DNA from: Escherichia coli
GTDB lineage: Bacteria; Pseudomonadota; Gammaproteobacteria; Enterobacterales; Enterobacteriaceae
NCBI RefSeq assembly: GCF_050920415.1
Contig: NZ_CP169309.1
Length of the DNA stretch: 64,000 nucleotides
Direction: 5' to 3' (one strand)
In this document: in pieces, positions 3,650 to 17,462 of the stretch
Layout of the letters: each line of letters starts with the position of its first letter
How positions within the stretch are numbered: position 1 is the stretch's first letter
The notes under the pieces: model-generated
Told to the model about the DNA's origin: nothing
What the model saw: only the letters and a program-made list of their open reading frames with translations
Database searches by the model: none
Position numbers and translations under genes: made by a program

Positions 3650-3737
3650 GGTGAGGTGTCCGAGTGGCTGAAGGAGCACGCCTGGAAAGTGTGTATACGG
3701 CAACGTATCGGGGGTTCGAATCCCCCCCTCACCGCCA
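3650..3737 (+). tRNA. serW: tRNA-Ser (anticodon GGA), 88 nt including CCA
   Basis: GGTGAGGTGTCCGAGTGGCTGAAGGAGCACGCCTGGAAAGTG...GGGGGTTCGAATCCCCCCCTCACCGCCA; acceptor stem ggtgagg/cctcacc, long variable arm, encoded CCA. Confidence 0.95.
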
Positions 3738-3777: not shown

Positions 3778-3787
3778 CGCATTTTAT

Positions 3788-3867
3788 CTGCCTGTACGGC
3801 AGTGAACAAAATTACAAAGCATCAAAACCAGGGAATAGTTTTCTAAGCTGCCTGTACGGCAGTGAAC
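3788..3867. repeat. Two copies of a 20-bp direct repeat ctgcctgtacggcagtgaac (3788-3807 and 3848-3867), each holding a small hairpin
   Basis: Exact 20-bp identity read from the sequence, 60 bp centre to centre. Confidence 0.6.
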
Positions 3868-3926
3868 TCAAATACTACACGTCTAGCCCGTTGTTAATAA
3901 AGCAAAACCATCTCATTTTCCTGCTG

Positions 3927-3945
3927 CCCCCCCCCCCCCCCCCCC
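3927..3945. repeat. Homopolymeric C19 tract followed by T6
   Basis: 19 consecutive C at 3927-3945, then tttttt. Confidence 0.9.
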
Positions 3946-4030
3946 TTTTTTATCCTTACCTTTCAGCTGCACTACTTATCAACAACTTACCATCATCATC
4001 AAAAAAAGGGTCTGAACCTCCTCCACCCCA

Positions 4031-4068
4031 TAAATAAAAAGTCCGTAACCTCTTTCGAGATTACGGAC
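4031..4068 (-). terminator. Candidate rho-independent terminator of clpA
   Basis: Inverted repeat gtccgtaa...ttacggac, followed on the minus strand by tttttattta, just 3' of the clpA stop. Confidence 0.6.
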
Positions 4069-4093
4069 TTCACCAACCTACCTAACAATTAGA

Positions 4094-6370
4094 TTAATGC
4101 GCTGCTTCCGCCTTGTGCTTTTGTGCACTCTGGAATCCGTAAGTCAGCTCATTTTTCTCTTTATCCAGCGCAACCGTCACCTGACCGCCGTCCACCAGCG
4201 AACCAAACAACAGTTCGTTGGCGAGCGGTTTTTTCAGGTTGTCCTGGATGACACGCGCCATCGGACGTGCGCCCATCGCCCGGTCGTAACCTTTCTCGGC
4301 CAGCCAGTTACGCGCTTCCTGGCTCACTTCCAGAGAAACACCTTTCTGATCCAACTGAACCTGCAACTCGACGATGAACTTATCCACCACCTGATGGATC
4401 ACGTCGGTGGAGAGATGATCGAACCAGATAATGTTGTCGAGACGGTTACGGAATTCCGGTGTAAAGATCTTCTTGATCTCTTCCATCGCATCGGTGCTGT
4501 TATCCTGATGGATAAGACCAATCGATTTACGCTCAGTTTCCCGTACCCCGGCATTAGTGGTCATCACCAGCACCACGTTACGGAAGTCCGCTTTGCGTCC
4601 GTTGTTATCGGTCAGCGTACCGTTGTCCATCACCTGCAACAGAATATTGAACACGTCCGGGTGCGCTTTCTCGATTTCGTCCAGCAGCAGCACCGCATGA
4701 GGATGCTTGATGACCGCATCAGTCAGCAAACCGCCCTGATCAAAACCAACGTATCCCGGAGGCGCACCAATCAGACGGCTGACGGTATGGCGTTCCATAT
4801 ACTCGGACATATCAAAGCGTAACAGTTCAATGCCCAGAGCTTTGGAAAGCTGCACCGTCACCTCGGTTTTCCCGACCCCGGTAGGACCAGCAAACAGGAA
4901 CGAACCGACTGGTTTATGTTCGTGACCTAAACCTGCACGCGCCATCTTAATGGCTTCAGTCAGCGCCTCAATGGCTTTATCCTGACCGAAGACCAGCATT
5001 TTCAGGCGATCGCTGAGGTTTTTCAGGGTATCGCGGTCACTCTGAGAAACACTCTTCTCTGGAATGCGCGCAATACGGGCCACCACGGACTCAATATCCG
5101 CCACATTAACGGTTTTCTTGCGTTTGCTTACCGGCATCAGGCGTGCGCGAGCGCCCGCTTCGTCGATAACGTCAATAGCTTTATCCGGCAGATGACGATC
5201 GTTAATGTATTTCACCGCCAGCTCCACCGCAGCACGCACCGCTTTCGCGGTATAACGCACGTCGTGGTGCGCTTCATACTTCGGTTTCAGGCCATTGATG
5301 ATTTGAACAGTTTCTTCGATCGACGGTTCAGTAATATCAATTTTCTGGAAGCGACGCGCCAGAGCACGGTCTTTCTCGAAAATGTTGCTGAACTCCTGAT
5401 AGGTTGTCGAACCAATTACGCGAATTTTACCGCTGGAGAGCAACGGTTTGATCAGGTTAGCCGCATCAACCTGACCACCAGAGGCTGCACCCGCACCGAT
5501 AATGGTGTGGATCTCATCAATAAACAGGATGCTGTTAGTGTCCTGCTCCAGCTGCTTGAGCAACGCTTTAAAACGTTTTTCAAAGTCGCCGCGATATTTT
5601 GTGCCCGCTAACAGAGAACCGATATCGAGAGAGTAAATCGTACAGTCAGCCATCACTTCCGGCACATCGCCCTGAACAATTCGCCAGGCAAGACCTTCCG
5701 CAATCGCGGTTTTGCCGACACCGGATTCCCCCACCAGCAGCGGGTTGTTTTTACGGCGACGGCAGAGAACCTGAATAGCACGCTCCAGCTCCTTCTCACG
5801 ACCAATCAGTGGGTCGATTCCGCCCACACGCGCAAGCTGATTCAGGTTCGTCGTGAAATTCTCCATACGTTCCTCCCCACCAGCTTGTTCTTCGCTGTTT
5901 GGCTGGCTGCCAGGATCAGAAGACTGTGTCGGCTCGTCTTTACGCGTGCCATGAGAGATAAAGTTCACCACATCGAGACGGCTGACTTCATGTTTGCGCA
6001 ACAGATATGCCGCCTGCGACTCCTGTTCGCTAAAGATAGCGACCAGAACGTTTGCACCGGTAACCTCATTGCGACCGGAGGACTGGACATGGAAGACCGC
6101 ACGTTGCAGTACACGCTGAAAACTCAGCGTTGGCTGTGTGTCGCGCTCCTCTTCACTGGCAGGCAGAACGGGTGTGGTTTGTTCAATAAAGGCTTCCAGT
6201 TCCTGACGGAGCGCAACCAAATCCACAGAACACGCTTCCAGCGCCTCCCGGGCAGATGGGTTACTGAGCAGCGCCAGTAACAAGTGCTCGACGGTCATAA
6301 ACTCATGACGGTGCTCGCGCGCTCTGGCGAAAGCCATATTTAAACTGAGTTCCAGTTCTTGATTGAGCAT
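4094..6370 (-). CDS. clpA: ATP-dependent Clp protease ATP-binding subunit ClpA
   Basis: ORF matches ClpA ([31 protein letters not shown]..., two AAA+ modules GESGVGKT and GPTGVGKT); start trimmed to ATG at 6368-6370, preceded by a gggagg SD. Confidence 0.97.
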
Positions 6371-6400
6371 AGGCACCTCCCCCAATTTTTATGCCTGCAT

Positions 6401-10513: not shown

Positions 10514-11506
10514 ATGGTGAAATCGACGTTATGTATAACCATTGATTTCATGAATATGTCGCAGCTAACTGAACGGACCTTTACGCCATCTGACTCTCTC
10601 AGCAGCCTGTCACTTTTTCTTAGTCTGGCACGTGGACAGTGTCGGCCGGGTAAATTTTGGCATCGCCGTAGTTTTCGCCAGAAATTTTTGCTGCGCTCGT
10701 TGATTATGCCGCGTTTAAGCGTTGAGTGGATGAACGAACTTTCCCACTGGCCTAATCTCCATGTGTTGTTAACGCGCCAGCCGCGACTGCCTGTGCGTCT
10801 GCATCGCCCTTACCTTGCGGCGAATCTTAGCCGCAAGCAATTGCTGGAGGCGTTACGTTACCATTATGCATTGCTCCGTGCCTGCATGTCGGCAGAAGAA
10901 TTCAGCTTATATTTGAATACTCCCGGGCTGCAACTGGCGAAGCTGGAAGGCAAAAACGGCGAGCAGTTCACGCTTGAGCTGACCATGATGATCTCAATGG
11001 ATAAAGAAGGTGACAGCACAATCCTGTTCCGCAACTGCGAAGGTATTCCTCTGGCAGAGATCACCTTTACTCTGTGTGAATACCAGGGGAAAAGAACAAT
11101 GTTTATTGGCGGGCTGCAAGGTGCGAAATGGGAAATTCCACATCAGGAAATCCAGAATGCGACGAAAGCCTGCCACGGGCTATTTCCCAAACGTCTCGTG
11201 ATGGAAGCGGCCTGTCTGTTTGCCCAACGTTTGCAGGTAGAGCAGATCATTGCCGTCAGCAATGAAACGCATATTTACCGCAGCCTGCGTTATCGCGATA
11301 AAGAAGGCAAGATCCATGCAGATTACAACGCTTTCTGGGAGTCGGTTGGCGGCGTATGTGATGCTGAACGCCATTACCGCCTTCCGGCACAGATAGCACG
11401 AAAAGAGATTGCCGAAATCGCCAGTAAAAAACGGGCTGAATACCGTCGGCGCTATGAGATGCTCGACGCTATTCAGCCACAAATGGCCACGATGTTTCGC
11501 GGTTAA
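10514..11506 (+). CDS. ybjX: DUF535/VirK-family protein YbjX
   Basis: 330-aa ORF in the position and at the length recalled for ybjX; exact start not verified. Confidence 0.8.
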   Translation: MVKSTLCITIDFMNMSQLTERTFTPSDSLSSLSLFLSLARGQCRPGKFWHRRSFRQKFLLRSLIMPRLSVEWMNELSHWPNLHVLLTRQPRLPVRLHRPYLAANLSRKQLLEALRYHYALLRACMSAEEFSLYLNTPGLQLAKLEGKNGEQFTLELTMMISMDKEGDSTILFRNCEGIPLAEITFTLCEYQGKRTMFIGGLQGAKWEIPHQEIQNATKACHGLFPKRLVMEAACLFAQRLQVEQIIAVSNETHIYRSLRYRDKEGKIHADYNAFWESVGGVCDAERHYRLPAQIARKEIAEIASKKRAEYRRRYEMLDAIQPQMATMFRG

Positions 11507-13161
11507 TCCGCGCGACCGCGCGCCAGCCACAGCACGCGTGAGAACATTTTTTTCAGCAGCGTCGGTACGGAGTCCACACCACGACGGCCGGCCTCCATTG
11601 CCACTTCAATGGCAAGATCGGGTTTGGAAGAGCGATGGATCGCTTTCGAGATAATTTTACGCAGATTCATCGGCACATTTTCCGGGATCTGCGCCACGCG
11701 GTGGAACACATCGGAAAATCCCTGGCGATACATAAAATGTTCCATATCCAGCGCCGGTAACGCCGTTAAATGTTCTCGTTCGGCTTCCCGATCGTTATTC
11801 AACAGGCTGCGTACCGTAGCGGCATACTTCTTCCCGGCTTCATCGCCATCGACCAGCACATGCCATTCAATCCCCATTCGACGGGCGAATTTAACCAGTG
11901 GCTTTAGCCCGGACTGGGCAAACTCAATGACCTTGATCCCTTCGGCATCAAAATGATGTCCACACTGACGCGCCAGTTCATTGATAACCCAGGTTTCCGT
12001 TTCGCCTTCCACCAGCAGCCAGCAGCGAGCAAACAGCGATGACGGACGATTAAAACGAATGTGGAAAGAGATGCGTCGGCTATCTTCGGTACTCAAGCCA
12101 CTCGGCCCCAGACGCCAGGCGGCAACGCGAGAGGACTCACGTACCAGTCGGCAAACATGCTCTACCGGCGTTAACGAAAGCAACTCACCCGAGTTGGTGG
12201 TGGCAATGCGCTGCAATGGCAGAAGATTCAACAGATGCCAGGCAACTGAAAGCATAATAGGGTGTAAACGCGTTTCTGGATCTTCAATCAGCAATAATGG
12301 ACGTGCGTCTTTATCGAGCCGCAATGTGCCTTTTGCCTGCAATAAAGTAGCAAACAGGCCGAGCAAAATAACCCGATACGAGCGCCCTCCAGGCCGGTCA
12401 ATCATCCGGTTGATGATATCCAGATAGCGCCAGCTTCGTTGCTCATTGCTGGCTCGCCGCCGCATTAAACGATATCGCGCCTGTCCGGCCCCCTGCTCAG
12501 AGAAATAATGCTCAAGCAGTTGCACCATTGCGGAAAGTCCCTGACGAATCTGCCCATCAGAGAGATTTTGCGGATGTGAGGATAACTCACGGGCGAGGAA
12601 ATCGAGCTGGCGCGCGGTGACTTCCACATTAGGGACATTTGGCACCGTGCCGTTACGAATACGGCGCATAAAGCGGGCATCACGCAAGCGCAGCACCGGC
12701 ATTAAACGCACCAGATGGCGTGCCTGATCGTTAATATCCTCGACATCAATCGGATGTCCGTCTTTATCGAGAAAACTGCGGAGTGTCATCACGCTGCCGT
12801 CTTCCGCACTCTCCCCTTCCAGACGATAAAAAATACGGTGATAGCCATCGGTGCATGGCGTCCAGCACGCTTCCAGCGGCCGATAGCGGCGAACCCGATG
12901 TCGGCCTGGCAGAGATTCGCGGAAGGTCAAAATAATATGCAGATGATGTTCTCGCCCGTTGATATCTCCCGGCGGGAACCAGAAATCGTCGCGCTCAAAA
13001 TGGTAGAGATCTGATTCTGGCGATAGCAGCAGAGTTAAGGCGTCCAGCAAGCTGGATTTACCCCACGCGTTCTCCCCAATCAGGACGTTGTTTTGTTCCA
13101 GCATCAACGACAAACGGTTGATACCGCGAAAACCCACAATTTCAACGCGCTCAAGAATCAT
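11503..13161 (-). CDS. ybjD: OLD-family ATPase/nuclease-like protein YbjD
   Basis: 552-aa ORF with N-terminal P-loop LIGENAWGKSSLLDAL; position and length match ybjD. Confidence 0.85.
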   Translation of the reverse strand: MILERVEIVGFRGINRLSLMLEQNNVLIGENAWGKSSLLDALTLLLSPESDLYHFERDDFWFPPGDINGREHHLHIILTFRESLPGRHRVRRYRPLEACWTPCTDGYHRIFYRLEGESAEDGSVMTLRSFLDKDGHPIDVEDINDQARHLVRLMPVLRLRDARFMRRIRNGTVPNVPNVEVTARQLDFLARELSSHPQNLSDGQIRQGLSAMVQLLEHYFSEQGAGQARYRLMRRRASNEQRSWRYLDIINRMIDRPGGRSYRVILLGLFATLLQAKGTLRLDKDARPLLLIEDPETRLHPIMLSVAWHLLNLLPLQRIATTNSGELLSLTPVEHVCRLVRESSRVAAWRLGPSGLSTEDSRRISFHIRFNRPSSLFARCWLLVEGETETWVINELARQCGHHFDAEGIKVIEFAQSGLKPLVKFARRMGIEWHVLVDGDEAGKKYAATVRSLLNNDREAEREHLTALPALDMEHFMYRQGFSDVFHRVAQIPENVPMNLRKIISKAIHRSSKPDLAIEVAMEAGRRGVDSVPTLLKKMFSRVLWLARGRAD

Positions 13162-13586
13162 ATCCCCTCCAGAAATATGTGACTTATCCTTTACGCTGGC
13201 AGTATAACGGGAAAGGCCTTGCTAATACGTGATGACATCACATTTAAGCATGGCAAATGTCTGAAAAATGAGCGAATAATCGCGTTATACTCCCTCTTGC
13301 TGATAAGTCTGCAAAAACAACAAAATCAAATAATTAGCATGATAAATTATTTTTTATTACGCCTAAAGGATTAAATCTTTTGCTTGCACTACACTGTCAA
13401 TCAGACAAATGACTATATGGGGCAACCCGCTGTTGCCCTAAATCAAATTTACTGGATTTATTTATCTGGTGAATGACTCGCCTTCGTTTTTAAAATAGCC
13501 GCGCATTATTTCCGTCGTCACTTTTTTACGACGACCCTATAAAACGACCATATTTTTCACAGGGTCAATTTTTAATTGAGGTGGAT

Positions 13587-14282
13587 ATGTTCAGAAAATT
13601 AGCAGCTGAATGTTTTGGTACTTTCTGGCTTGTTTTTGGTGGCTGTGGTAGTGCCGTACTGGCCGCAGGCTTCCCGGAATTAGGCATTGGTTTTACCGGC
13701 GTAGCGCTGGCATTCGGTTTAACCGTTCTGACGATGGCCTTCGCTGTTGGTCATATTTCTGGTGGTCATTTTAACCCGGCGGTCACTATTGGCTTATGGG
13801 CTGGCGGACGTTTTCCGGCAAAAGAAGTCGTTGGCTACGTAATTGCCCAGGTTGTCGGCGGTATTGTTGCAGCGGCGCTGCTGTATTTAATTGCCAGTGG
13901 TAAAACGGGATTTGACGCGGCAGCCAGCGGTTTTGCTTCTAACGGTTATGGCGAGCATTCACCAGGCGGTTATTCCATGCTTTCCGCGCTGGTGGTTGAA
14001 CTGGTATTGAGTGCAGGTTTCTTGCTGGTGATCCACGGCGCAACCGACAAATTCGCTCCGGCGGGTTTTGCACCAATTGCCATTGGTCTGGCATTAACGC
14101 TGATTCACTTAATCAGTATTCCGGTGACTAACACTTCCGTTAACCCGGCGCGCAGTACTGCGGTTGCCATCTTCCAGGGCGGCTGGGCGTTAGAACAACT
14201 GTGGTTCTTCTGGGTAGTGCCAATTATCGGCGGTATTATCGGTGGTCTGATTTACCGGACTCTGCTGGAAAAGCGTAATTAA
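13587..14282 (+). CDS. aqpZ: Aquaporin Z
   Basis: 231-aa MIP-family protein with two NPA motifs (HFNPAV, SVNPAR); [25 protein letters not shown]... Confidence 0.96.
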
Positions 14283-14291
14283 TTAACGCAG

Positions 14292-14320
14292 AAGGCCTGG
14301 CGCAATGTCAGGCCTTTTTT
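14292..14320 (+). terminator. Rho-independent terminator after aqpZ
   Basis: aaggcctg...caggcctt hairpin followed by tttttt. Confidence 0.6.
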
Positions 14321-14379
14321 AAATATATAGATTCATCTTCCTGTTGCGCTCCTTGATGTGTTAAGCCACATATAGTCAC

Positions 14380-14600
14380 TGGCGCAGGGAGCGCGCAGGG
14401 GGCGGCCAATCGCCGCCGCCCCCTGCACCCCCGGGCTCTGGCGAACAAAATCGCCGCTGCGCGGTGCCCTCGACTTATCCCTTGCGGCTACCGGGTCGGG
14501 CGCGAGGTAACATCCCGGTAAAACGCGCCCTCAGCCCACATCCATGTGGGCTGCCCCGGCCTTCAGGGAACGCCTCGGCGATTTTGACGCCACCAACACC
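14380..14600. repeat. GC-rich multi-hairpin intergenic element (possibly a Box C or other small repeat family)
   Basis: Perfect 11-bp inverted repeat cagggggcggc...gccgccccctg, palindrome cccacatccatgtggg, several GC-rich stems; sharp contrast with AT-rich flanks. Confidence 0.45.
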
Positions 14601-14766
14601 GGTGCGGTTTGTAATTAAAGCGCAAGAACATCTTTAAATGAAAATGAATACCCTACCGATCCTTATGCATAACATTTCCTTTTAATTGCAACTTTACTCG
14701 TCCTTCCGCTTTCAGTAGTGTGTCATCGCGCATTTCGACTTATTTCTTTGCAAGGACTGGTTTTTC

Positions 14767-15666
14767 ATGTTTTCTGGGCTGTTAATCATTCTGGTTCCCC
14801 TGATTGTGGGTTACCTCATTCCGCTTCGCCAAAAAGCTGCATTAAAGGTTATTAATCAGCTATTAAGCTGGATGGTTTACCTTATTCTCTTTTTTATGGG
14901 TATCAGTCTGGCGTTTCTCGATAACCTCGCCAGTAACCTGTTGGCGATTCTGCATTATTCCGCCGTCAGTATTACCGTTATTTTACTGTGTAATATTGCC
15001 GCCCTGATGTGGCTGGAGCGAGGCCTACCGTGGCGCAACCACCATCAGCAAGAAAAACTCCCGTCACGTATTGCGATGGCGCTGGAGTCCCTCAAGCTCT
15101 GCGGTGTGGTGGTGATTGGCTTTGCTATTGGCCTTAGCGGATTAGGTTTCTTACAACACGCTACGGAAGCCAGCGAATACACGTTAATTCTGCTACTTTT
15201 CCTCGTCGGTATTCAGTTGCGTAATAATGGCATGACCTTAAAGCAGATTGTCCTTAATCGCCGGGGAATGATTGTCGCTGTGGTGGTGGTGGCCAGTTCT
15301 TTAATTGGTGGTTTAATTAACGCCTTTATTCTTGATCTTCCCATCAATACCGCGCTGGCAATGGCTTCCGGTTTCGGCTGGTATTCTCTTTCCGGTATTT
15401 TATTGACCGAATCTTTTGGTCCGGTAATCGGGAGCGCGGCGTTTTTTAATGATTTGGCCCGTGAGCTGATTGCTATTATGTTGATCCCTGGGCTGATTCG
15501 CCGTAGCCGCTCTACTGCACTGGGCTTATGCGGTGCGACGTCGATGGATTTCACACTGCCCGTTCTTCAACGTACTGGCGGACTGGATATGGTCCCGGCG
15601 GCGATTGTTCACGGTTTTATTCTTAGCCTGTTAGTGCCGATCCTCATCGCCTTTTTCTCTGCGTAA
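14767..15666 (+). CDS. lysO: L-lysine exporter LysO (YbjE)
   Basis: 299-aa polytopic membrane protein; position and length match ybjE/lysO. Confidence 0.88.
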   Translation: MFSGLLIILVPLIVGYLIPLRQKAALKVINQLLSWMVYLILFFMGISLAFLDNLASNLLAILHYSAVSITVILLCNIAALMWLERGLPWRNHHQQEKLPSRIAMALESLKLCGVVVIGFAIGLSGLGFLQHATEASEYTLILLLFLVGIQLRNNGMTLKQIVLNRRGMIVAVVVVASSLIGGLINAFILDLPINTALAMASGFGWYSLSGILLTESFGPVIGSAAFFNDLARELIAIMLIPGLIRRSRSTALGLCGATSMDFTLPVLQRTGGLDMVPAAIVHGFILSLLVPILIAFFSA

Positions 15667-15772
15667 TACCTCTCTGGCGGTAGATCCCTGCCGCCAAAAT
15701 TGCGCTAAATCAATCTCCCTTAAAGTTGCATGAAAAATCCCTTTTATCCCCGCGTTAAGCGTCTTAACCTTA

Positions 15773-15795
15773 AACATGTATATTAAATATAACTT
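15773..15795 (+). promoter_or_regulatory. Candidate NsrR operator in the hcp promoter
   Basis: aacatgtatattaaatataactt, an imperfect inverted repeat resembling the NsrR consensus, about 15 bp upstream of the hcp start. Confidence 0.4.
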
Positions 15796-15809
15796 TAAAA
15801 GGTGTGATC

Positions 15810-17462
15810 ATGTTTTGTGTGCAATGTGAACAAACTATCCGTACTCCGGCAGGAAACGGCTGCTCATACGCGCAGGGGATGTGTGGTAAAACGGCGGAAA
15901 CCTCTGACCTTCAGGATTTACTCATTGCGGCGCTGCAAGGGCTTTCGGCCTGGGCGGTAAAAGCACGTGAATACGGCATCATCAACCACGATGTAGACAG
16001 CTTCGCGCCGCGCGCATTTTTCTCAACCCTGACTAACGTTAACTTCGATTCTCCGCGTATTGTCGGCTACGCTCGTGAAGCAATTGCCCTGCGCGAGGCG
16101 CTGAAAGCACAGTGCCTGGCTGTAGATGCCAACGCCCACGTCGATAACCCGATGGCTGACCTGCAACTGGTGAGTGACGATCTCGGCGAGCTGCAACGTC
16201 AGGCGGCGGAATTTACTCCCAATAAAGATAAAGCGGCGATTGGCGAAAACATTCTCGGCCTGCGTCTGCTCTGCCTGTATGGCCTGAAAGGTGCTGCCGC
16301 CTATATGGAACACGCGCACGTTCTCGGTCAATATGACAACGATATTTACGCCCAGTACCATAAAATCATGGCATGGCTGGGTACCTGGCCTGCCGATATG
16401 AACGCACTTCTCGAGTGCTCCATGGAAATCGGCCAGATGAACTTCAAAGTGATGAGCATTCTGGACGCAGGCGAAACCGGTAAATACGGTCACCCGACGC
16501 CAACTCAGGTCAACGTCAAAGCGACGGCGGGTAAATGCATTCTGATTTCCGGTCACGATCTCAAAGATCTCTACAACTTGCTGGAACAGACCGAAGGCAC
16601 GGGCGTTAATGTCTACACTCACGGCGAAATGCTGCCTGCCCACGGCTACCCGGAGCTGCGTAAATTCAAGCATCTGGTCGGTAACTACGGCAGCGGCTGG
16701 CAGAATCAGCAAGTAGAGTTCGCTCGCTTCCCTGGACCTATCGTGATGACCTCGAACTGCATCATCGACCCAACCGTAGGGGCTTATGACGATCGTATCT
16801 GGACCCGCAGCATCGTTGGCTGGCCGGGTGTGCGTCATCTGGATGGTGATGATTTCTCAGCAGTTATTGCCCAGGCACAACAAATGGCGGGCTTCCCGTA
16901 CAGCGAAATTCCGCACCTGATCACCGTGGGCTTTGGTCGTCAGACGCTGCTTGGCGCGGCGGATACGCTGATTGATCTGGTGAGCCGTGAAAAACTGCGT
17001 CATATCTTCCTGCTCGGTGGCTGTGACGGCGCACGCGGCGAGCGCCACTACTTCACCGATTTCGCCACCAGCGTGCCAGATGACTGCCTGATCCTGACCC
17101 TCGCCTGCGGTAAATATCGCTTTAACAAACTTGAGTTTGGCGATATCGAAGGTCTGCCGCGTCTGGTAGATGCTGGTCAATGTAACGATGCTTACTCAGC
17201 GATTATTCTGGCTGTCACTTTGGCAGAAAAACTGGGCTGCGGTGTCAACGATCTGCCGTTGTCGCTGGTACTCTCCTGGTTCGAACAAAAAGCGATTGTT
17301 ATTCTGCTGACGCTGCTTTCTTTGGGCGTGAAAAATATCGTTACCGGCCCGACTGCACCTGGCTTCCTGACGCCAGACCTGCTGGCGGTACTGAACGAGA
17401 AATTCGGCCTGCGTTCTATCACCACTGTTGAAGAAGACATGAAGCAACTGTTGAGCGCGTAA
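15810..17462 (+). CDS. hcp: Hybrid-cluster protein Hcp
   Basis: 550-aa [31 protein letters not shown]... with the N-terminal Cys cluster. Confidence 0.96.

Follow-up and report, generated by a model that had tools for sequence, protein, structure and literature searches.

What is the GC-rich, hairpin-forming DNA that separates aqpZ from lysO in the window, that is, the whole 64-kb stretch of Escherichia coli sequence analyzed here, and which of its features are conserved? A sequence-only reading had remarked on an abrupt switch to very high GC after the aqpZ terminator, and had considered another small dispersed repeat family, a structured RNA or a binding platform. In our assessment, the element is very probably the aqpZ-lysO copy of the enterobacterial repeat TRIP1 (TRIP1a), equivalent to RRS-lysO, acting by the replication-gap mechanism published for K-12.

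Position and identity of the repeat

The region around the element is the reverse complement of K-12 MG1655 912-918 kb, as judged by gene-order comparison, and the abrupt GC-rich stretch is indeed present as a 222-bp block of 69% GC at 14376-14597. In 100-bp windows, the GC content is 0.66-0.73 over 14350-14599, compared to 0.42-0.48 just upstream and 0.35 downstream, with a mean of 0.50 for the whole window. While the block itself was correctly recognized from the letters, its start was not, as conservation begins earlier, at TTGCGCTCC (14344), a segment that pairs with GGAGCGC at 14388-14394. The locus is organized as follows.

11503-13161, minus strand: ybjD, neighboring gene (ORF list)
13587-14282, plus strand: aqpZ coding sequence, upstream neighbor (ORF; synteny with K-12 b0875; annotated aqpZ under genome matches)
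14292-14320, plus strand: aqpZ intrinsic terminator (8-bp stem AAGGCCTG / CAGGCCTT, 9-nt loop, then a T run)
14344-14602, plus strand: full conserved TRIP1a element (259 bp, 66% GC; alignable across all genera)
14376-14597, no strand assigned: RRS-lysO core (222 bp, 69.4% GC; near-identical between the K-12 lysO and dusC copies)
14767-15666, plus strand: lysO (ybjE) coding sequence, downstream neighbor (ORF; synteny with K-12 b0874)
from 15804, plus strand: hcp, neighboring gene (ORF list)

The terminator stem arms, 14292-14299 / 14309-14316, were recovered by an inverted-repeat search; a simple terminator scan overlooked them since its loop limit was 8, the actual loop being 9 nt. The TRIP1a element begins 24 bp past the T-run, and a 15-nt imperfect direct repeat, TAATTAACGCAGAAG / TAATTAAAGCGCAAG, flanks terminator and element together. 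No second TRIP1 copy was found within the 64-kb window, a promoter scan recovered no sigma-70-like promoter in 13400-15000, and a literature search for the lysO transcription start gave nothing usable.

TRIP1 was described by Rudd in 1999 ('Novel intergenic repeats of E. coli K-12') and surveyed by Li et al. (Genes 2024, PMC10888264). RRS-lysO and RRS-dusC, which Pham et al. equate with Rudd's TRIP1 (NAR 2023, PMC10287960; NAR 2024, PMC11194060), are GC-rich, 222 bp long and each located about 650 kb from dif, and were found independently as the ends of strong lagging-strand RecA and SSB single-stranded DNA (ssDNA) peaks (PMC10287960, PMC11194060). In K-12, 70 bp separate TRIP1a from the upstream aqpZ stop and 158 bp from the downstream start of ybjE (PMC10888264), and Rudd's account, quoted in the same paper, puts it 31 bp after the aqpZ terminator. 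The position of our element relative to the aqpZ end, the terminator and the lysO start agrees with that published for TRIP1a (PMC10888264). Over 14380-14602, the window copy and the lysO copy of K-12 share 98.2% identity, versus 96.4% for the copy at dusC in K-12, and megablast against 5383 genomes returned 100% query coverage. Moreover, the published G-quadruplex (G4) motif GGGGGTGCAGGGGGCGGCGG, taken from PMC11194060, is matched exactly once in the 64 kb, on the minus strand at 14413-14432, with 0 matches expected by chance. Congruent with this match, the sole strong G4Hunter signal of the region is a peak of -1.84 at 14406-14437, pointing to the minus strand.

The window copy agrees with K-12 RRS-lysO in locus, in orientation to the neighboring genes, in hairpins and, exactly, in the G4 motif, and differs by four core substitutions, including one within the GGGCGCG hairpin loop, and by a terminator-repeat spacer that is 10 bp shorter, representing strain-level variation. 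RRS-dusC (TRIP1c; dusC/yohI - mdtQ/yohG in K-12) is a paralogue with the same fold and G4 motif and, according to the published work, the functional partner located on the other replichore. Its locus lies outside the window, it has the inverted orientation with respect to the lysO copy of K-12 (between yohP and dusC in the K-12 record), and it deviates in the loop of the 5' stem-loop and in the 3' tail. K-12 carries TRIP1a, TRIP1b (putP-ycdN, internally shortened by 125 bp) and TRIP1c (yohI-yohG), while TRIP1d (alx-sstT) and TRIP1e (copA-ybaP) have been found in other strains, their frequencies among E. coli genomes being just 23% and 3%, respectively (PMC10888264). The 5' stem-loop and the 12-bp hairpin described below are common to the family, TRIP1b, TRIP1d and TRIP1e included. 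The putP-efeU copy (TRIP1b) is without an internal segment in our paralogue alignment as well, the missing 125 bp belonging to the branched domain and being deleted between short direct repeats, CCCCGGnC.

A megablast search with 14370-14610 matched 5425 of 5426 complete E. coli genomes, with 1-8 places per genome and a median of three. The suggestion of a small dispersed repeat family was therefore right, the family being TRIP1/RRS. The element is already known, as the canonical lysO copy in the K-12 orientation, and detecting it where it would be expected contributes no new knowledge; since it belongs to a named and studied repeat family, any claim of novelty falls. The family is far from functionless.

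Other repeat families were considered as well. The REP consensus core GCCKGATGNCGRCGY, reportedly from Stern et al. in 1984, and the cores GCCGGATG and CTGATGCG are absent from 14300-14650 with two mismatches allowed, in line with the initial impression that the block is not a canonical REP; REP-core hits do occur elsewhere in the window. REP/BIME elements resemble TRIP1 in being GC-rich, extragenic and hairpin-forming, in often following terminators and in being linked to DNA topology, one BIME class binding gyrase. In contrast, TRIP1 is about seven times longer, adopts a branched fold, is present in 1-8 copies rather than hundreds and has no REP consensus. The central inverted repeat of ERIC/IRU elements, for which the sequences of primers ERIC1R and ERIC2 were used, had no match with five or fewer mismatches anywhere in the window. 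Box C elements are about 56 bp long and present in about 30 copies per genome, a description that the element, with its length of about 260 bp and copy number of 1-8, does not fit. An Rfam search of 13000-16000 with 4227 covariance models at E <= 1 had a single hit, a chance match to a group II intron within aqpZ (E = 0.51; 17.9 bits versus a gathering score of 49), and thus no family supporting a structured RNA.

A branched fold and its covariation

Folded as ssDNA, 14344-14602 reaches -77.7 kcal/mol on the plus strand and -79.9 kcal/mol on the minus strand, compared to averages of about -54 and -58 for dinucleotide shuffles (z = -5.95 and -5.71, respectively; 0 of 200 shuffles were as good). 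The plus strand as RNA folds at -132 kcal/mol (z = -5.27). The following structural features were delineated, listed without a strand except for the G4 motif.

14346-14394: 5' stem-loop, GCGCTCC / GGAGCGC (14346-14352 / 14388-14394), with a loop that varies between loci
14395-14426: perfect 12-bp hairpin GCAGGGGGCGGC / GCCGCCCCCTGC with an 8-nt loop (arms 14395-14406 / 14415-14426)
14413-14432, minus strand: RRS G-quadruplex-forming motif GGGGGTGCAGGGGGCGGCGG, exact match to the published motif
14434-14594: large branched domain, closed by a long-range stem of 14434-14453 with 14579-14594
14498-14530: hairpin GGGCGCG ... CGCGCCC (fold prediction; GGGCCG / CGGCCC instead in Klebsiella copies)
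14532-14553: perfect 10-bp hairpin CAGCCCACAT / ATGTGGGCTG, including the palindrome cccacatccatgtggg (inverted repeat 14532-14541 / 14544-14553)

Within the branched domain, inner stems are formed by 14468-14479 / 14568-14578 and 14486-14495 / 14555-14561. The elements first picked out from the letters all recur here. The inverted repeat cagggggcggc / gccgccccctg, at 14396-14406 / 14415-14425, is really a perfect 12-bp pair, and the palindrome at 14535-14550 is part of the perfect 10-bp pair. A 16-nt long-range inverted repeat, 14446-14461 / 14571-14586, is also present.

To follow the fold across copies, we ran an exact-pattern scan of 100,044 species-representative genomes, yielding 38 loci in Escherichia (coli, albertii, whittamii and Escherichia sp.), Klebsiella, Kluyvera and Enterobacter sp. 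ENT03, with at least six copies in K. pneumoniae ATCC 13883, five and seven in Kluyvera and four in Enterobacter sp. ENT03. Two tiny low-coverage contigs, in Bacillus and Pseudobutyrivibrio assemblies, also matched but proved to be E. coli sequence. We then aligned 32 full-length copies from Escherichia, Klebsiella, Kluyvera and Enterobacter, for which RNAalifold returned 68 pairs in three modules: the 5' stem-loop, the 12-bp hairpin and the branched domain with its long-range stem. Changes on both sides were detected in 19 of the 68 pairs across the four genera, with 98.3% of cells paired. In 500 column shuffles the observed number of covarying pairs was never reached, and with the partners displaced by 1-3 columns as a control, 0-4 covarying pairs were left. 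Examples include CCCACAT/ATGTGGG versus CCCGCAT/ATGCGGG, and CAAAATCGC/GCGATTTTG versus CAACATCGC/GCGATGTTG versus GAAAATCGC/GCGATTTTC.

The compensatory changes are distributed over the modules. The main closing helix holds them in 7 of 12 pairs across genera, and the 5' stem-loop in two pairs, with for instance GCGCTCT / AGAGCGC in Enterobacter. In the 10-bp hairpin, 15 copies have A-T and 17 have G-C at positions 14538/14547, and a multiply compensated variant, CGCCGCGCAT / ATGCGCGTCG, is present in two copies. The 12-bp hairpin has 11 of its 12 pairs invariant among the 32 copies, an invariance that is partly ascertainment, as the search pattern included its 5' arm and loop; one copy (L048) displays this hairpin with a compensated GGGAG / CTCCC variant. 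Judged from the alignment, the whole multi-hairpin fold, and not the G-run alone, thus appears to be conserved by compensatory Watson-Crick changes across four genera.

The pairing is almost purely Watson-Crick, in 2099 of 2161 pair cells, counts that come from related sequences and hence are statistically dependent. With one doubtful pair excluded, the remaining cells comprise six G-T on the plus strand and 18 A-C, the latter equivalent to G-T on the minus strand. The asymmetry leans towards folding of the minus (G4) strand, a hint only, as the cells are few and phylogenetically dependent. The near-absence of wobble pairs is the pattern expected if both DNA strands must fold, and the compensatory Watson-Crick changes agree with a fold selected at the DNA level rather than as RNA. 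Hairpin-templated correction could also yield compensated changes without selection, though it would itself require the fold in vivo. As the G-run overlaps one arm of the 12-bp hairpin, the sequence alone cannot separate quadruplex from hairpins as the block.

Orientation and spread of the copies

Among the 5426 complete E. coli genomes, the aqpZ-lysO copy is oriented as in the window in 4028 and reversed in 1015 (19%), the latter counted in colinear genomes with the aqpZ-lysO spacer of strain E69 plus 100-bp flanks as query. This matches the split of 3448 versus 1255 of Li et al., who report TRIP1a and TRIP1c in both directions (PMC10888264). Relative to the same neighboring genes, repeats at lysO and/or dusC run in the opposite direction in E. 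whittamii and in a record labelled E. coli strain E69, whose flanks share about 93-94% identity with the window. Strain CP66-6_Sichuan (NZ_CP053723.1) is another natural carrier of the reversed allele. The two aqpZ-lysO alleles have only the repeat in common, the flanking spacers being unrelated in either orientation. A simple in-situ inversion as the source of the reversed allele was therefore rejected, as the spacers on both sides are unrelated. Strain 2015C-4136CT1 carries a reversed, internally deleted form, in which a compensated GGGAG/CTCCC change keeps the 12-bp hairpin and breaks the G5 run. Considering all loci, copies occur in every orientation relative to the flanking ORFs.

Roughly one in five complete E. 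coli genomes hence carries the lysO copy in the orientation that gives no RecA/SSB peak when engineered in K-12. The natural orientation is not fixed, though orientation is said to matter, and this counts against the full RRS model.

Beyond E. coli, genomes of Klebsiella, Kluyvera and Enterobacter hold 4-13 copies, and copies within one genus are more alike than copies between genera. One Klebsiella chromosome carries the repeat at 13 places, with 83-86% identity and sharp ends at query positions 11-233, defining a unit of about 222 bp. Internally deleted derivatives comprise TRIP1b and two further copies, L048 and L006. A more sensitive search of a plasmid collection gave 34 records, all non-mobilizable; the four that were opened have chromosome-type housekeeping genes beside the repeat and no associated transposase, and based on these flanks we read them as mislabelled pieces of E. 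coli and Klebsiella chromosomes. A phage collection of 50,697 records yielded no match.

We saw no terminal inverted repeats of the element and found no target-site duplication. Comparison of K-12, which is without TRIP1d and TRIP1e, with the filled loci gave no clean empty site with a definable junction, the K-12 sequence there being unrelated; the K-12 alx-sstT spacer, for example, holds unrelated sequence where other Escherichia carry the repeat. A search for tandem repeats in the repeated tails that follow the Kluyvera copies detected nothing above threshold.

Replication gaps and competing explanations

The functional data stem from K-12. The lagging-strand RecA and SSB peaks at lysO and dusC vanish on deletion of the respective repeat (PMC10287960). 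When the G-strand serves as template, Pol I, II and IV are arrested at the G4 site, and placing the G4 on the template strand lowers the efficiency of M13 replication about two-fold (PMC11194060). Pham et al. report that gaps arise wherever RRS is moved, that at least one copy is conditionally essential, with deletion of both possible only with compensating amplification or replacement by inverted copies, and that deletion or inversion of RRS alters genome-wide supercoiling; copies inverted by engineering do not produce a RecA/SSB peak in vivo. According to the K-12 model, the fork exposes the lagging template, the G-rich strand folds into G-quadruplex and hairpins, and the folded strand blocks the polymerase extending the Okazaki fragment, leaving a gap of up to 2 kb onto which SSB and RecA load. 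Single-molecule assays in a 2026 preprint (PMC13308219) show a gap almost every time a replisome meets the element when the lagging template carries the G-strand, and in about two-thirds of such encounters when it carries the C-strand.

With 98% identity to the K-12 copy, the window copy would presumably act by the same mechanism. The G-rich strand here is the minus strand. From the plus-strand GC skew of -0.039 over the window, and from the window being the reverse complement of the K-12 915-kb region on the right replichore, this strand is indirectly assigned as the lagging-strand template, as in K-12. The fork would accordingly run from hcp/lysO to aqpZ, i.e. from high to low coordinates, and lagging-strand (Okazaki) synthesis would enter the element from the aqpZ side and stall near 14395-14432. 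The gap would then span the remaining element and lysO up to the preceding fragment, a position over lysO that is expected from the published model together with the replication direction. The idea of a binding platform would hold loosely in this setting, in that SSB and RecA occupy the ssDNA gap that the repeat provokes (PMC10287960), but not in the sense of a duplex site. The source papers hypothesize that transient gaps act as swivels, or as a topological relief valve, easing topological stress around the Ter macrodomain, with a role at the Ter boundary. The many copies in other genera sit uneasily with a definition by two symmetric sites, one on either side of Ter.

Could the repeat instead spread as a selfish or mobile, MITE-like intergenic sequence that is gained and lost, the gap being a side effect of its stable fold? 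The variable copy number, with 1-8 places per E. coli genome in our search and 0-5 copies at five loci in the published survey (PMC10888264), the many copies in Klebsiella, Kluyvera and Enterobacter, their within-genus resemblance, the two aqpZ-lysO alleles with opposite orientations and unrelated spacers, and the internally deleted derivatives are all of the kind such an element would leave. Of its hallmarks, no terminal inverted repeats, target-site duplication or clean empty site were found in the alleles compared, only the 15-nt imperfect direct repeat around terminator and element; the phage records had no match, no transposase lies near the copies in the four opened plasmid records and all 34 records are non-mobilizable. 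The reported need for compensating amplification when both copies are deleted is also at odds with a mere passenger, and we regard this account as unlikely, although selfish spreading as such is not incompatible with RRS function. A role as a homologous-recombination substrate, with the inverted repeats serving inversion of a 1.3-Mb terminus-containing segment, is documented by 156 rearrangements in 129 genomes, 88% of them TRIP1a-TRIP1c, including the 1.31-Mb inversion of strain SMS-3-5 (PMC10888264). Yet any 260-bp repeat would behave likewise, the rearrangements affect only 2% of genomes, and the compensatory stem conservation, the G-run and the replication-gap phenotype are left unexplained, rendering this role extremely unlikely as the basis of the element.

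A structured RNA, whether a small RNA gene or an aqpZ 3'-UTR or lysO 5'-UTR element for stability, termination or translation, would account for the favorable RNA fold and for the compensatory changes, and a conserved 'double-Y' RNA structure has been predicted for the repeat and its transcription suggested (PMC10888264). Against this stand the lack of an Rfam family at E <= 1 and of a sigma-70-like promoter in 13400-15000, the start of the element 24 bp past the T-run of an intrinsic terminator, the occurrence of copies in every orientation to the flanking ORFs, with 19% of E. coli genomes reversed at aqpZ-lysO, and the near-pure Watson-Crick pairing, unlike typical RNA families. Moreover, the published effects were obtained with ssDNA as template and in transcription-free replication assays (PMC11194060, PMC13308219). 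We consequently consider the RNA interpretation, one of the three initially put forward, as very unlikely, and favor RRS-lysO as an element acting at the level of DNA.

Within the RRS-lysO assignment, what does the conserved fold add? Published work credits the G-quadruplex for the block. We tentatively raise the possibility, short of an even chance in our judgment, that the whole branched fold is the selected unit on both DNA strands, and that TRIP1/RRS is a spreading family for which the Ter-flanking role in K-12 is one lineage-specific use. This reading is supported by the compensatory, almost purely Watson-Crick pairs (19 of 68) in four genera, by the deleted natural variant that keeps the 12-bp hairpin though its G5 run is broken, by the reversed lysO copies with their different spacers in 19% of E. 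coli genomes, and by the 4-13 copies in Klebsiella, Kluyvera and Enterobacter. The C-strand gaps in about two-thirds of encounters (PMC13308219) fit a fold that operates on both strands. The additions made here are modest: cross-genus covariation showing hairpins conserved besides the G-run, pairing restricted to Watson-Crick, and orientation counts. Together, covariation and orientation sharpen the RRS question, namely whether the G4 or the whole fold is the block, and whether orientation is required. With at least one copy reported as conditionally essential in K-12 and a reported influence on genome-wide supercoiling, RRS is a biologically important element.

A functional analogue exists in the pilE G-quadruplex of Neisseria gonorrhoeae, which likewise sets off a programmed, replication-associated gap via a G4; the RRS authors know of no further bacterial sequence that does so. 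No sequence relationship between the two is known, and the pilE site is a short G4 for pilin antigenic variation, not a 222-260-bp multi-hairpin repeat. RRS and the pilE G4 are the sole bacterial sequences described so far as programming a replication gap.

Two arrangements of the aqpZ-lysO spacer

Comparison of the copy of the dispersed multi-hairpin repeat TRIP1 that lies between aqpZ and lysO (TRIP1a) revealed two alleles of this spacer in E. coli, in which the element is oppositely oriented (1598-2053 of locus L047 and 3840-4208 of locus L022, versus 14283-14766 of the window), and the spacer sequences flanking it are unrelated between the two. The arrangement of the window is present in 4028 of 5426 E. 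coli genomes, and the reversed one in 1015 of the same set. A derivative that is both reversed and internally deleted was recovered from strain 2015C-4136CT1 (L048 1598-1916). Here the 12-bp hairpin of TRIP1a carries a compensated change, GCAGGGAGCGGC / GCCGCTCCCTGC, by which pairing is kept and the G5 run is interrupted.

In the window, the aqpZ terminator and TRIP1a are together enclosed by an imperfect 15-nt direct repeat, TAATTAACGCAGAAG / TAATTAAAGCGCAAG (14280-14294 and 14612-14626, 80% identity), which could have matched by chance or could be the scar of an old insertion.

TRIP1 and other repeats at further loci

The alx-sstT spacer of K-12 (L045 3580-3700) differs from that of other Escherichia: where they have the family copy TRIP1d, it contains another block that is GC-rich and palindromic, CCCTCTCCCTTCCAGGGAGAGGGTCGGGGTGAGGG ... 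CCCTCACCCTAACCCTCTCCCC. The alx-sstT slot therefore hosts different repeat families depending on lineage.

Multiple copies were found on single contigs in Kluyvera, with three in Kluyvera cryocrescens (L025-L027, 52 kb) and two in Kluyvera genomosp. 1 (L017-L018, 19 kb). Visual inspection showed two direct repeats of about 38 nt, TTTCAGCTAAAAGCnAACGCCAATAT, just after the 3' tail in several Kluyvera copies; these were not reported by Tandem Repeats Finder. Klebsiella copies are commonly followed by a REP-like unit, GTAGGCCGGGTAAGGCG...GCCGCCACCCGGC, and at one Klebsiella locus (L002, approximately 2860-2910) a partial TRIP1 3' tail, GGTAGTTTCAGCCAGCATGGTAAATAAATTAAAAGCAGGCC, precedes the full copy by about 100 bp.

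Loci L007 and L043 are contigs of 432 bp and 583 bp from assemblies of Pseudobutyrivibrio and Bacillus, respectively. Both contigs display about 0.7-0.8x coverage and 97-99% identity to E. coli TRIP1 loci, and in L043 the putP-side flank is fused to a lysO-side flank. Assembly contamination is the most likely origin of these TRIP1-bearing contigs.

A CRISPR-like block near tRNA-Ser

Elsewhere in the window, two copies of a CRISPR-like repeat, spaced by 60 bp, match GTTCACTGCCGTACAGGCAGCTTAGAAA, which we take to be the E. coli type I-F repeat:

3781-3808, reverse complement of GTTCACTGCCGTACAGGCAGCTTAGAAA, degenerate copy
3841-3868, reverse complement of GTTCACTGCCGTACAGGCAGCTTAGAAA, complete copy

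The block (3781-3951) is flanked by tRNA-Ser(GGA) at 3650-3737 and by a long minus-strand ORF at 4094-6385, presumably clpA as judged from K-12 gene order. It resembles the orphan CRISPR mini-array located between clpA and infA. After the two repeat copies come a C19 homopolymer and a T6 run (3927-3951), the former being of unusual length and possibly prone to slippage.
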